Below are positions 7,513 through 63,626 of a stretch of 64,000 nucleotides of DNA, piece by piece. Each line of letters begins with the position of its first letter. The first letter of the stretch is position 1. The translations under genes and the position numbers were made by a program. Where the stretch lies: positions 15,562,001 through 15,626,000 of the forward strand of contig OX597825.1 in NCBI GenBank assembly GCA_951406725.2, in the 5' to 3' direction. The notes beneath the pieces are model-generated. The model ran no database searches. It saw only the letters and a program-made list of their open reading frames with translations, and had not been told where the DNA came from. The DNA is from Octopus vulgaris. Taxonomy: Eukaryota.

Positions 7513-7891
7513 TGTGTCAGTATGTTCGGATGGTTGAGTCTGGGTTTGTACTTTTCAATGAAGAATGTTTCCTTGTTCAGTCTCATTTGTGTTGATGATC
7601 CGAAAGCACATTGGTAAAATGGGAAGATTAAAAATTGTGGCAGTAGTTGCTTTGCGCATTTCTCAATGTGCTCACTAAAAGGTATCATTCTATATTCTGG
7701 GAATTCCCAGAATATAGAATGATACCTTTTAGTGAGCACATTGAGAAATGCGCAAAGCAACTACTGCCACAATTTTTAATCTTCCCATTTTACCAATGTG
7801 CTTTCGGATCAACACAAATGAGACTGAACAAGGAAACATTCTTCATTGAAAAGTACAAACCCAGACTCAACCATCCGAACATACTGACACA
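7513..7891. repeat. Near-perfect 379-bp palindrome, no spacer
   Basis: Arms 7513-7703 and 7704-7891 centred on GAATTC; they differ only by a 3-bp indel. Confidence 0.97.
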
Positions 7892-8084
7892 GAGAAATTA
7901 ACAAGGGAAAGGGAAAAACCATCCGAACATACTGACACAGAGAAATGAACAACGGAAAAGGAAAACAAATTTTAAGCGATTATCTCCCTTACACCGGAAG
8001 AAATCACTCACTACCTCCCCTTATTTAGAAATCTCCTGAAAATAAATACAACGATAACTCCATGCAATATAAACATAACGTCAC

Positions 8085-8124
8085 AAGAAATTTGAAAAGC
8101 TACACGCGAAACCGGTAATTTCTT
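8085..8124 (+). ncRNA. Minimal type I hammerhead ribozyme, U3:A8 variant
   Basis: AAGAAAT-[TTGAAAA]-GC tacac GC-[GAAA]-CCGG-TA-ATTTCTT: 7-bp stem I, 2-bp stem II, palindromic ACCGGT stem III, GUA triplet (predicted cut after 8117). Confidence 0.8.
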
Positions 8125-11049
8125 TAAAAATTTTTAAAATTATGTCATTTTAAGGAAAGGAAAAAAATTTTTCCAATATTCTCCAAACATTTTGACACAA
8201 ATATATATATTTTTTAACATTTAAGCCTTCTGTCGTTTTTTCACACTTTACTATTTTCTTATATATTCACCCACGTGCTTTACCAAACAAACTTTCTTAT
8301 ATATATATATATATATATATATATATATATATATATATATATATATATATATATATATATACATATATATATATACACATATATATATATATACATATAT
8401 ACACCCTCGTGCCTGCACATACATGACATGTCTACATATAATAGCGTCGTTGCCTGACTGCAAACATTCGACATATATCATACGTGACGCAGAAATTTGG
8501 CTCAGACCGCAAATCGTAGCCACACATCTTTCAAATTTAATAATACATATTATGCTATTTTTCTATAGCGAAAATCTGTTGAAGAATTTTATTCATTTCA
8601 TACCACAAGAGTCACTAGCGTCAGTATACAATGAATTCTAATTCACATCTAGCAAGAACTACTTGTAATGGCGATGTTATTATTGTCCTTCCTCTCTCAA
8701 TGAAAATTTTAGTTGCTGGCCTTTTAAATGACTATTGATTAATTCCACCAGTTGACCAACTGACAAATCGTACAGCAATACGTTCAGAACTGGGGAAATT
8801 ATATCCTATATACCATTATCTTCAGTTCTGTGTCTTTTATATGACTCACACTCAATTGAAATGACATACTATGTTAACTCAAACATGAAGACGCATTTTT
8901 AAATGAGTCTCCCATTGAGAAAGTCATGTGTTTTACATTCGCTCTGATCTTTATTGCTGCATCTCCAATTTTTATTCATTTCCTGTTACTATAAAATACC
9001 AGAAAAAAAAGGAACATATACGTAAATATATATCACGCAAACATACACACACACACGTATATACACACACACTCAAACACTAATATACACACATATGCGT
9101 GTGAATATACACGTACAACATCCATTGGTATTTATGCATATTTATACACACGCATAATGTATGTGCACATATATTTCTCTCTCTCAGTGTCTCTCTCTCT
9201 AAACATATATATATATATACATAGACACACATACATATATATGTACATATATATATATATATATATATATATATATATATATATATATATATATATATAT
9301 ATATATATATACATATTCATAGTCATACATGCATATACATAGATATATGTGTACGTGTGTTTGTGTGGCGGTGGAGAGTGGGGTGTATGCGTGTATGTAT
9401 TATGGAACGTTGACCTAACCGTATTGATTTATGTTTGCGTGTAGTTATTATTTTTTCTCACGCAAACCCTATCTCTGTCTCTGTCTCTGTCTCTCTCTTT
9501 CTCTCTCTCTCTCTCTCTCTCGCGCTTCTCTCCTTCTCCTTCTCATACAGAAAAGCACATATTTATAACATGTGCACATTTGTGTGTATAAATGCGTATA
9601 TAAATATATCATCGCACGTGTTTTCTATTCAAGAGGGACGGATATTATCACAAGTCCAATAAAATATATAATTGTCAAGTTTATACGGGATATATTTTGG
9701 TGTACACATACAGAGCCTTGATATTAATTTGATGTTCTTTCTTCCTTAAACTATATCATTGAATATTCATCGTATATTTAATGTTCATATATTTTTCTAA
9801 GTGTACAGGAATAAGTACATTCCTTTGTTCTACATGCATGATGCCGTGCTTCTGGTGCAGTAGGCTATCCGTATGCATTTATTACAATAGATGATTAAAT
9901 ATCAACAGCCAAGTCTACCTAGGTTTGTGTACATGTAAACGTGATAGTACCTCTGAATTCGTGAATAAAATATTGGTTAGAAATCCTGATTGAAATGTTT
10001 TTGTGTAGAAAGCTTCCTCTATTAAAACAGCATGGAGTCCATTCAGAGATTTGTTTCTCATCAACTTCATTCAACAGAAACAGAAGATAAGGCCTGGCTG
10101 CGTATCTAAGAGCAGCTAAGTTTACCTAGACTTTATACAGGTGTAATGCTGATTGCATTTGAGAATTCATCAATTAACTATTGGTAAGTGACCTGTTGTA
10201 AAGGGGTCTTTGCCACTGTTGTATCTGTCTTTTGACGAAGCTTATCCCTCTGAAAGATATTACTATAGTCCGAAGTCGTCGATAGAGTGCTTCTATGTGG
10301 CACTGTACGACCTCCAGTCGTACAATGTTATTGTCCTCAAAGGGTTGGATCGTTATAACGTCCACTTAATATCACAGTATAATTACTATATCAGCACAGA
10401 CACGACTATCAACACAATCTACACGTACATCCCACCTTCCGAATTTCTGTTGTCAACAGGCTACTGGTCTATTTATAATGACTGGCTACTACCACTTTTT
10501 ACCGGGCGGAGTGTACAGTTTCACTATAGAACAAGATCTGACATAAATATTTTGGAGCCAAACATATATATCCGGGGGTAAAAAGGGATTGTGAAACAGG
10601 GAGAAACTAGTTATTTAATATTATGAAAAGTATCAAGTCATACATACCTAAACACATACTGCATCAACTGAACACGCAATTCGAAACAATACCTTACGGT
10701 CTGAAATCTCGGACAAATATCTTTGTCACAGAAAATATGCTCTCTTATATAACTGTAATATCCCTACTAGGAATATATAATTATGCGTATGAGACTATAG
10801 GCGTGTTATTTAGTGTTTAAGGTGTTGAACTCCTGATCGTATGATTGAGGTTTCGATTCCTAGATCGGATGGTGTATTGAGTTCTTGAGTAAGTGAAACA
10901 CGTCATTTCCCATTGCTCTATCCCCTCTGCTGGCGATAATCTGTAGCCTCACGATGACCGGGAGTCCCGTCCAGAGTTTGAATCCAGGAAACCACCATTC
11001 TGAGCCTCTAGCCCCCGAGATACCTTTGACCAATTATGATATATACAAG

Positions 11050-11270
11050 TGTGTGTGCGTGCGTGCTTGTGTTTGTCTTCCACCACCGCTTCAAAACCGG
11101 TATTTGTTTGTTCACGTCCCCGTAGCTTAGCGTTTCGCTAAAATAAACCGATAGTATGGGCACCATACGTTAAAACAACTACTGGGATCGATTTATTTGT
11201 CTGAAACCTTCAAAATGGTGCCCCAGCATTGCCGCACTTCAATGACTGATGCAAGGAAGATACAAAAAGA
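11050..11270 (+). mobile_element. SINE family A, degenerate 3' half
   Basis: ...ACGTCCCCGTAGCTTAGCG...ATGGTGCCCCAGCATTGCCGCAC..AATGACTG matches the family A tail. Confidence 0.75.
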
Positions 11271-11589
11271 TATACAAACGATCCTTTTTGTGACAGATGA
11301 GCGAGGAACGAAAAGCTTCAGTCAACTTGGTTGATCCACACTCAGTGTTTGTCCAGACGAAAGACAGAAGGAAGAGCCGAATTCTAATTTAATGGATTTT
11401 CGCTGACTTCTGTAGTTGTTATTTTGAGCCGACGTTTCTAGAAAAATCAATACTTTGGAAAAATTCAGTACAACGCTTATTTAATACTTTCCGTGTAGTG
11501 GAATAGCATTTTCATTTAAAATTTCAGCAGAATTTGATTGGATTTAATAGCGTTATGAAATGTTGTTTTTTTTCGCAATATTCTTATCA

Positions 11590-61680: not shown

Positions 61681-62214
61681 TATATATATATATATATATA
61701 TATATATATATATATGTGTGTGTGTATATACGTGTGTTTGTGTGTGTGTGTGTGTCATGCGCTAAGCATTCTATTTTACATATGTAGCTTTGCAACAAAT
61801 AGAATTTTAAGGTGAGGAATGCTTATGAACACACTCTGTGAGCGTGTTGTTGTAATTTTAACAACCTCAACACACTCTTAGGGCTTATTAAGTATATCTG
61901 ACGCGATCATAAAATTTAGCGTAAATCCTTACAGAAATTTTACTGTATAGAAATTTGGCGATGATGGTTTAACAAGCATTCATCTAGATTAACGGAACCT
62001 TTCACTACATCACTGGATCTGGCATAATGTTTCATATTGGTTTATTAGCATTAAATATAGGTATCACGAGATAGTAGCCTAGCTGGCTCCAAATATCTCG
62101 CATAATCATATTCTGCCGTCTCAAAACATCTTTGCCGATGTAAATCGTGACGAGATGGTCGCTGGTGGAACACTTTTAGTCATAGGTATATTCGATTAGA
62201 GTTAATTTTGGATA

Positions 62215-62750
62215 CAATGCCAGTAATTTAAGGGGAATGGGTAAGGCGATTGCATTGGCTCTTGTTTTATAGACCCCGAAAGTATGAAAGGCATAGTCGA
62301 ACTCAGCAGAAATTGAACTCAGAACGTAAAGACACATGAAATGCCGCTAAACACTTTTGTATAGCTATACAGTGCTATACAAAAATGTATTTATTAATCC
62401 TTCAGGTAAATGTTAAATTCGTTTTATTATAAAGTGAGACAAGAACACAACGAGCTGACAGAGTAATTACCGTGACGTTCAAAATGCTAAGCCACATTAG
62501 GTCCGGTGTTCAAATCGTATCGAGGTCTATTTTTGCCTTTTTTTTTTTACTTTTGGGATCGAAGAAATAAGTACCAGCAATTTAAGGGGAATGGGTAAGT
62601 CGATTGCATTGGGTCTTGTTTTATAGACCCCCAAAGGATGAAAGTCAAAGTCGACCTAGTCTGAATTTGAACTCAACACGTAAAGGCGCATGAAATGTCG
62701 CTAAACATTTTTCCCGCTATGCTAACTATTTTGCCTGGTTACCGCCTCGA
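62215..62750. mobile_element. Cluster of three old SINE family B-like copies (-, +, -)
   Basis: Deu/Nin-like cores at ~62270-62320, ~62510-62577 and ~62620-62675. Confidence 0.7.
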
Positions 62751-62936
62751 TTAGACCTAATATTGCTTAAGACAATAATGGAATTTAGAGACCATATGGT
62801 CTACACAGTTATGCAAAAATAATCCGATAAATCAAATCAATTAAAGTAAAGAGGTTTTTTGCCATTTTAAAGAGGCTTTTAACATGGGGATTTTCCTCTC
62901 ATACAAGTGTATTCTAATTAAAGAATAAAATATATG

Positions 62937-63340
62937 TGTGGTAAGAAACTTGCTTGCCAACCCACTTCCTGGCACCTTCTACTTTAGTCTCGGATTCAAC
63001 AAAGTCTTGTGGGTGGGTTTTATTGATGGAAACACAAAGAATCCCGTCCTGTGTGAGTGTGTGTGGGAATGTATGTTGGTGTGTGCATCTGTGCGGTTGT
63101 GTGTGTGTTTGTGTGTACGCGTGTGTGTATATCTCTGTGCCTGTATTTGGCCCCCTTGCACCGCTTGATAACGAATGTTGGTTTGTTTATGTCCCTGTAA
63201 CGTAGCGGTTCCACAGAAGAGACCGAAAGAGTAAGTGCCTGGCTAAAAAATGTAAGTGCTGGAGTCGATCCATTCGACTAAAAATTCTTCAGGACGCTGC
63301 CCCAGAATGGCAGGTTAATAACTGACAGAAGTAAAAGAAA
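62937..63340 (+). mobile_element. SINE family A, diverged
   Basis: Head, TG tract and tail recognisable. Confidence 0.8.
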
Positions 63341-63504
63341 AAAAATTCTGCCGAGTAAAATTATATTCAGAGATGCTCGAGACAAAACCAAACAGGTTTT
63401 GCATTGACTGAAGCTTTCACGGTAGAAATACAGTCTCATCTATAATACAGTCGTAGCAGATACCTTTACAAAAGCAACCAGGAACATTTTGAATTTTACT
63501 TAAA

Positions 63505-63626
63505 TGACTGTTGTGTCTGGGGTGAGTCATTCTCTTTTAGTGCTTTATAATTTAACACAGTCGCCGGTGAGTGTGTCAAATTATAAGGCACTAAAAAATA
63601 ATGACTCACCCCAGACACAACAGTCA
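63505..63626. repeat. 122-bp imperfect palindrome, no spacer
   Basis: 61-bp arms centred on CC|GG at 63565/63566, a few mismatches. Confidence 0.92.

Follow-up and report, generated by a model that had tools for sequence, protein, structure and literature searches.

Hammerhead-bearing inserts in TA microsatellites of an Octopus vulgaris locus and their probable relation to Penelope-like elements

We analysed a 64,000-nucleotide stretch of Octopus vulgaris DNA (the window; assembly GCA_951406725.2, contig OX597825.1, positions 15,562,001 to 15,626,000), in which short inserts with hammerhead ribozyme motifs interrupt (TA)n microsatellites. The window is rich in microsatellites: it holds 67 (TA)n tracts of at least eight units, compared with 47 for every 64 kb of a genome sample taken at even spacing. 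This sample of 60 10-kb stretches (600 kb) underlies all densities and extrapolations below; the genome searched measures 2.8 Gb in 227 contigs. An initial annotation, made from the letters alone, had listed 14 hammerheads here and ascribed them to Penelope-like elements (PLEs). Eleven of these sites belong to eight multi-copy type I hammerhead families (A, B, C, D, H, I, J and M; C and J only probably), and those at 24759, 27611 and 32460 are look-alikes. Some inserts lie outside (TA)n tracts, namely those at 29473, 34914 and 63505. The whole family fold is kept in three window copies only: 8085 (family A), 16573 (D, with U.U at the base of helix II) and 55383 (B, with U for A at position 6, A6U). 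Compared with other members of their families, most window copies have disabling changes.

The insert at 7513-8297 had been singled out as joining a GIY-YIG C-terminus, a fold-back and a hammerhead, and it does. A 99% fold-back centred at 7703/7704 joins an inverted, truncated arm (7513-7703, minus strand) to a family A 3' end (7704-8297, plus strand). The latter consists of an endonuclease C-terminus (7704-7898), a 48-bp duplication, a pseudo-long terminal repeat (pseudo-LTR) and a 31-bp tail, followed by (TA)n. Sixty-five codons are identical to the C-terminal end of a longer PLE endonuclease protein. The minimal type I hammerhead (8085-8124, plus strand; predicted cut after 8117) has a U3-A8 pair, a 7-bp helix I and a palindromic helix III of 6 nt, which pairs with itself at -8.3 kcal/mol. 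The insert has 1,836 candidates in the genome, 40 of which were scored and match at 88-99%; its 33-mer hammerhead core has 630 exact matches, the control none. Longer copies contain an 869-codon frame with RVT_1 (E=3e-7), GLKF, DKG, a CX4CxxC linker, GIY-YIG and CCHH-type residues, although the Pfam GIY-YIG match is weak (E=0.02). The family A unit is 3,996 bp long and its tail continues into the start of the open reading frame (ORF). In 30 copies taken in genome order, sequence upstream of the ribozyme extends for 272 to more than 1,500 nt in 28 and for 15 nt in one; the remaining one is the reference. Family A is an autonomous element of 4.0 kb whose copies are of the ordinary kind, truncated at random 5' positions. 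Since 28 of 30 copies extend far upstream, the window insert is simply one more truncated copy, with an inversion, of a Neptune-like element that is young, and it has the structure depicted in PMC8557442. Copies of family J are nested inside a family A ORF (L039:3159-3760; L055).

Family B is the commonest family. Its window copies are a solo pseudo-LTR with an A6U hammerhead and decayed helix II (16655-16850, minus strand; site 16749), a copy in (TA)n with a decayed core (39419-39605, minus; site 39510) and a copy that passes our hammerhead descriptor (55290-55470, minus; site 55383, C3 at 55414). A B-like subfamily contributes a decayed hammerhead at 29440-29570 (plus; site 29473). Family M, a relative of B, lies at 34846-35030 (plus), with a broken GAAA box in its hammerhead at 34914; an apparent read-through of M was discarded because the sequence belonged to a different family. 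Seventeen B copies span the core in 600 kb, which extrapolates to about 79,000 in the genome (46,000-127,000). In locus L362/L381, reverse transcriptase (RT) motifs, a thumb and a Zn-linker immediately precede B; this parent sequence resembles family A at E=1e-17. This parent is one broken, 5'-truncated copy, unlike the Neptune clade elements of PMC8557442, and no endonuclease was seen in it. A and B share with Neptune the C-terminal endonuclease side, a CX4CxxC-type linker and a bias to microsatellites. Four Neptune features (CX2-5CxxC linker, GxKF, DKG, CCHH) are all present in A; B has the linker only, with one Cys changed. We call both families putatively Neptune-like, a term that does not separate Neptune from Nematis, which shares these motifs.

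The core of family B departs from the canonical A6, with U at this position in 50 of 52 copies. Any of the four bases occurs at position 7, and A or U at position 17; these two variable places are the free ones of the core, and the same holds in contigs of four public runs. Changes of A6 reduce hammerhead activity, A6C to less than 0.1 per min; A6U is not mentioned in the portion of PMC3088659 consulted. The 5' ends of B fall 62-80 nt upstream of the core in 22 of 37 copies. Depth steps at the same place in four of four public runs, by 27- to more than 40-fold; these runs are assembled contigs of uncertain kind, whose depths are crude and which cannot show transcription starts. PLE transcripts have been reported to start in the pseudo-LTR (PMC6765202), and PLE reverse transcription to initiate internally (PMC11167929). 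Together, these two properties would therefore yield fixed-length B copies without a separate master.

Family D occupies 16426-16634 (minus strand), where a solo pseudo-LTR lies in (TA)n as a 140-bp fold-back (16495-16634) with a 69-bp tail. It has been inserted into the TA tail of the neighbouring B copy, so that the nested pair spans 16426-16850. The hammerhead (site 16573; 16564-16620, plus strand, with its mirror copy on the other strand) has a 4-bp helix III with a palindromic loop and is buried in a perfect hairpin in the window copy. All 40 scored genome matches of the 209-bp insert are 98-100% identical, and AT repeats adjoin the tail end in all 30 matches inspected. In copies whose tail runs on, it leads into a 722-codon frame with all the Hydra-clade motifs listed in PMC8557442: RW-basic, DKT, a CxCX5C linker and CxxC/CxH, without CCHH. 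The evidence for RT and endonuclease consists of these motifs, read by eye, and 766 homologues; the A and D proteins are similar at E=6e-6, and Pfam gave no RT match for the D protein. By its motifs, family D is assigned to the Hydra clade of PLEs. Both A and D have a single ORF with RT followed by a GIY-YIG endonuclease, as in endonuclease-bearing PLEs, and in both the pseudo-LTR overlaps the ORF start, with partial tandems, an inverted 5'-truncated copy and an optional tail. The short D copies are 97-99% identical to the parent. The short forms of fixed length, of about 200 bp in B and about 140 bp in D, are solo pseudo-LTRs of RT-bearing parents.

The D unit measures 5.2-5.7 kb. About 3 kb after the stop codon are microsatellite-like, with 19 TA tracts; in comparisons of six loci, alignments of this 3' sequence run over 2.0-3.4 kb at 85-97%, whereas simple repeats that are unrelated attain 72-79%. 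Each long D insertion would bring new TA targets. An apparent captured piece of an E-like family lies in the D 3' sequence at L373:6440-9600 (also in L361, L365, L367, L370 and L374). Template-jump structures occur at L362, L364 and L347, where a D copy extending from helix I into the ORF adjoins another that begins at helix I; an extra G or short A-rich filler stands at several of these joints.

The remaining families are represented by fewer or older copies. Family H has a tail fragment (48396-48556, plus) and an insert at 49506-49921 (plus; site 49755) with a tail arm (49506-49660, minus) and a hammerhead arm (49735-49921, plus) bearing two core mutations; the hammerhead is identical and perfect in 15 of 22 copies. 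Family I (61496-61680, plus; site 61539) is a fold-back with a 66-bp tail and a U4C hammerhead on its inverted arm, helix I being truncated. Its inversion junctions are copy-specific, and U4C recurs in all 14 copies printed. The site at 25144 had been ranked with 8085 as the best; 8085 has a whole fold, whereas 25144 is probably a decayed family J hammerhead (25146-25300, plus; C3 at 25150; U.U at helix II base), judged against two other copies. Probable, too, is a family C hammerhead at 54869 (C3 at 54874) in an old fold-back with tail (54668-55075, plus), since core boxes and helix II are kept, although helix I is not demonstrable. A fold-back with a C-type tail at 63505-63680 (plus) lacks a hammerhead in this copy. 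So does the family E end at 24701-24956 (minus; tail and short inversion). Here the core proposed at 24759 is not conserved in three other copies, and the ribozyme of a related family lies further upstream. At 32460 the insert is single-copy: the three candidates found are itself and two scraps of 62-65 bp. This 419-bp stretch between TA tracts (32222-32640) is not a repeat.

Family F (27419-27809, plus strand) is built on a 493-bp head-to-tail unit, seen as partial tandems only, without a frame above 61 codons and 66% paired when folded as a circle. The window copy has an inverted arm (27419-27489) and a hammerhead that is cut off (27490-27560, plus); in 18 of 25 copies the plus-strand hammerhead is perfect and identical. 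The site listed at 27611 is an antisense look-alike without helix I. Both core boxes stand antisense at 27600-27650 (minus), beside an 8-bp helix, without helix I or U16.1. A viroid-like reading of F, with hammerheads in both polarities, was rejected, as the minus strand has no helix I and a G at 16.1. From its sequence, F is best described as a non-coding retrozyme-like unit.

A decayed PLE with RT and endonuclease had also been proposed at 18270-19075 (minus strand). The RT thumb is supported: 18639-18794 matches a profile of 12 PLE thumb fragments at E=0.0011, the best match in the window, and the fragment has one protein relative at E=1.7e-9. RT core and endonuclease were not demonstrated, and tblastn with the A and D proteins gave no match there. 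A search for longer homologues of protein P0005 returned none. A decayed PLE remains a plausible description of this fragment.

Are the hammerheads more frequent than expected by chance? A first descriptor found five window sites, two of them weak. A relaxed type I descriptor (cores CUGANGA, CCGANGA, CUGUNGA and UUGANAA) found 27 matches in 600 kb against none in five block-wise dinucleotide shuffles, and two in the window against none in each of 30 shuffles. The 27 matches represent 14 families and extrapolate to 126,000 hammerhead-shaped motifs in the genome (83,000-183,000); remnants of the window families alone number 49 in 600 kb. The proposed density of one per 4-5 kb is too high, with intact folds at about one per 22 kb genome-wide and most window copies decayed. 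For the 23 matches with 400 nt of downstream sequence (four were dropped), (TA)4+ lies within that distance in 19, where the background is 34% (p=2e-6). Tail ends adjoin TA in 23/27 copies of A, 58/78 of D, 29/40 of B, 18/22 of I, 8/14 of F and 7/11 of H (background 4.8%). The claim of hammerhead-bearing, (TA)n-targeting, Penelope-type inserts of many families is thus upheld.

Core boxes and three helices are present above chance, as in type I hammerheads. Compensatory base changes occur in helix II (G-C,C-G in A, G-C,U-A in L190, 4 bp in L012) and in helix I (C-G in B, G-C in M). Such covariation was seen only between related families and in few independent events. Rfam overlooks the inserts. 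The Rfam hammerhead model gave no match at the two clean sites tested (8040-8160 and one family H copy), and the 150 of 423 window matches listed in an Rfam scan contain only microsatellite and hairpin microRNA models.

Very probably, several PLE families left these inserts as their 3' ends and solo pseudo-LTRs, alongside some non-coding retrozyme-like units, and insertion into (TA)n was likely the work of the elements' own RT-endonuclease. The inserts have a common anatomy. In each, a hammerhead-shaped motif lies 60-260 nt from the 3' end, which is of two kinds, tailed or tail-less; inversion junctions vary between copies (I, D), and the flanks are TA. The endonuclease would nick (TA)n, and reverse transcription would start inside the pseudo-LTR at one of two sites, leaving a tail or none. 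The complementary DNA would halt early or reach the 5' end of the RNA and then fold back, giving the inverted arm. With transcripts starting in the pseudo-LTR, the short fixed-length copies of B and D would result if the 5'-proximal site were used for initiation, or if a solo pseudo-LTR were transcribed. A template jump, or an RNA circle from the same region copied repeatedly, may give the D arrays described below and F. Cleavage by the hammerheads is predicted to require dimers or protein help, and the ribozymes are probably dispensable for insertion.

Several observations weigh against this PLE origin. The relaxed descriptor was composed after the window families had been seen. RT-bearing parents link the consensuses of A, B and D to PLEs, but the loci examined yielded none for C, E, F, H, I, J and M, so their status as PLEs rests on anatomy. 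A same-strand PLE ORF lies within 1.5 kb upstream in only one of the 27 sampled hammerheads. Family A has no 5' hot spot (1/30). That of D was inflated by the search pattern; in loci chosen by their tail, the arms begin within parent positions 289-295 in 22 of 59 cases. The extra G expected from a capped 5' end is present in only five of eight such D junctions, plus one joint in a DNA run. Cleavage, transcription start and circular RNA enter this account as predictions.

Could most short inserts descend instead from independent non-autonomous masters, akin to short interspersed nuclear elements (SINEs) or retrozymes, that borrow PLE proteins? The frameless head-to-tail unit of F and a 362-bp tandem unit at L179 fit this proposal, pseudo-LTR pieces exceed ORF pieces by orders of magnitude, and pseudo-LTRs suffice in trans according to PMC3846280. 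However, the short copies of A, B and D are collinear with ORF-bearing parents, those of D nearly identical to theirs. Independent masters hold for F and perhaps for the parentless families, not for the whole set, and as a general account we regard them as possible, though not the likelier course. The initial annotation, too, had spoken of several unrelated short PLE derivatives; this stands for F and the D arrays, which are the only non-coding units in their own right among the window families, and fails for A, B and D. Far less probable, and largely refuted, is that the fold-backs are miniature inverted-repeat transposable elements (MITEs) or palindromic DNA elements with chance hammerhead boxes. 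The 40 best D matches do share length and centre, three listed sites are chance look-alikes, and TA flanks are also found in Tc1/mariner elements. One-sided tails, copy-specific centres, RT-bearing parents, the excess over shuffled sequence and the covariation between families all contradict a MITE origin. The apparent fixed structure and invariant 5' end of D are an artefact of score-ranked matches and of a pattern demanding G where the parent has T.

Among 100 of 185 matches listed, family D also forms tandem arrays: L341 (C2:64.63 Mb), L342 (C5:37.48 Mb), L344 (C8:91.47 Mb) and L345, with units of 277, 333, 271 and 154 bp. Mapped on a natural parent copy, the units cover positions 251-528, 201-535, 244-517 and 289-444, taken from the pseudo-LTR and ORF start and about 97% identical to the parent. 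The arrays contain 14, 21, at least 28 and 4 exact D hammerheads; in the first three, 10/12, 13/17 and 7/25 units are identical. L341, which sits in (TA)n, and L342 each consist of two multimeric arms in inversion, whose outer boundaries are the 3' ends with tail (429) and without (356). Array junctions show 1-2 nt of microhomology, lie away from the predicted cut site and have no splice signals; back-splicing was rejected as their origin for lack of GT/AG and for this microhomology. No RNA run was listed as carrying family D.

We infer that the D arrays are single rolling-circle-type insertions. Growth after insertion, by unequal crossing-over or slippage as in ordinary minisatellites, is discussed as a model in bioRxiv 10.64898/2026.07.22.740005, and L344 has internally deleted units; near-identical units are expected under both models. 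Such growth does not fit L341 and L342: the inversion in each has two multimeric arms, whose outer ends coincide precisely with the two PLE 3' ends in (TA)n, the layout expected of a single insertion. We hold later growth to be the less likely course. With rolling-circle-type insertion, the young D element beside arrays made from its own end likely shows how retrozyme repeats are born. A bolder proposal is tentative. An active Hydra-clade element might make retrozymes directly, its RT copying small pseudo-LTR circles cut at points unrelated to the ribozyme site and inserting arrays of 14 to more than 28 units into (TA)n in one step, while the 3-kb microsatellite cargo would seed targets and the commonest family would thrive with an A6U hammerhead that is crippled in catalysis but retained because of its shape.

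How does this compare with known systems? The observation is mostly real and its biology mostly known: these are new families within known kinds. Hammerheads, inversions, tails and (TA)n targeting of PLEs are published (PMC4209133, PMC8557442), as are solo pseudo-LTRs (PMC3846280) and PLE-derived retrozymes (Li, Clavereau and Pollet 2026, preprint), so that the ecosystem, which had been supposed to be hidden, is in principle not so. The minimal type I hammerheads of Cervera and de la Peña (2014; PMC4209133) share the U3-A8 covariation, the extra base between 9 and 10.1 and the palindromic helix III. They likewise occur mostly as single motifs from truncated PLEs, with opposite-strand pairs 100-700 bp apart and many families per genome. 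In contrast to them, helix III is palindromic over a greater length and the helix II base holds an unpaired N.N in several families here, B has a fixed A6U, and the extrapolated motif number compares with thousands reported there. U3-A8, the extra base after A9, U4C and U10.1.U11.1 are already in print. The Hydra clade (Craig et al. 2021, PMC8557442) resembles family D in its single ORF of about 712 aa, RW-basic, DKT, CxCX5C, CxxC and CxH motifs without CCHH, hammerhead and (TA)n insertion. Family D differs in its tandem arrays and in its length, which exceeds the norm of less than 3 kb because of the microsatellite-like 3' sequence.

F, the L179 unit and the D arrays resemble non-LTR retrozymes (PMC7229834; Li, Clavereau and Pollet 2026), that is, head-to-tail non-coding units of 150-500 bp with one type I hammerhead each. 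The L179 unit (L179:8466-9671) has a U3-A8 hammerhead and lies inverted in (TA)n. Known retrozymes differ from the D arrays, which are 97% identical to a co-resident intact PLE, have their own breakpoints each, and show PLE-type ends and inversion. Retrozyme origin is argued from homology and trees only in what we saw of the 2026 preprint. In vitro, Poseidon of Anolis (Frangieh et al. 2024, PMC11167929) has two internal start sites that explain ends with and without tail, and an AT-rich target; it belongs to a different clade, and its ribozyme needed protein and was dispensable for insertion. In the partial literature covered, we found no paper on these families or on arrays beside an intact parent; Repbase and the supplements of PMC4209133 and PMC8557442, which possibly list families of the genus, were outside its scope.

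Less expected are the D arrays with differing breakpoints, the fixed A6U in B and the microsatellite-like 3' cargo of D, which together make a useful test system. If our reading is right, Penelope ends account for some 100,000 hammerhead-shaped motifs and for many 'unknown' or SINE-like repeats of this genome, a point of importance when repeats are annotated. For octopus, one recent annotation of this sort (PMC13282606) does not contain the word 'ribozyme' and reports 893 recently active unclassified SINE families. The fixed A6U family beside families with canonical cores is a natural experiment on the role of PLE hammerheads, and several independent arrays beside an intact parent are one on the birth of animal retrozymes.

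Other repeats share the window. A highly abundant 400-bp repeat family, in many cases interrupted by (TA)n, occurs at 1678-2091, 15039-15457, 17883-18250, 27218-27436, 32638-33194 and 41361-41719 and gave no hammerhead match. A dispersed 230-bp repeat at 59256-60091, 22302-22538, 25624-25864, 47652-47889 and 57144-57378, with 152/184-bp tandem forms, presumably resembles an octopus SINE. Finally, we take 16862-17835 and 35043-36489, judged by eye, to be a decayed mariner-like transposase region and an inverted-repeat element.

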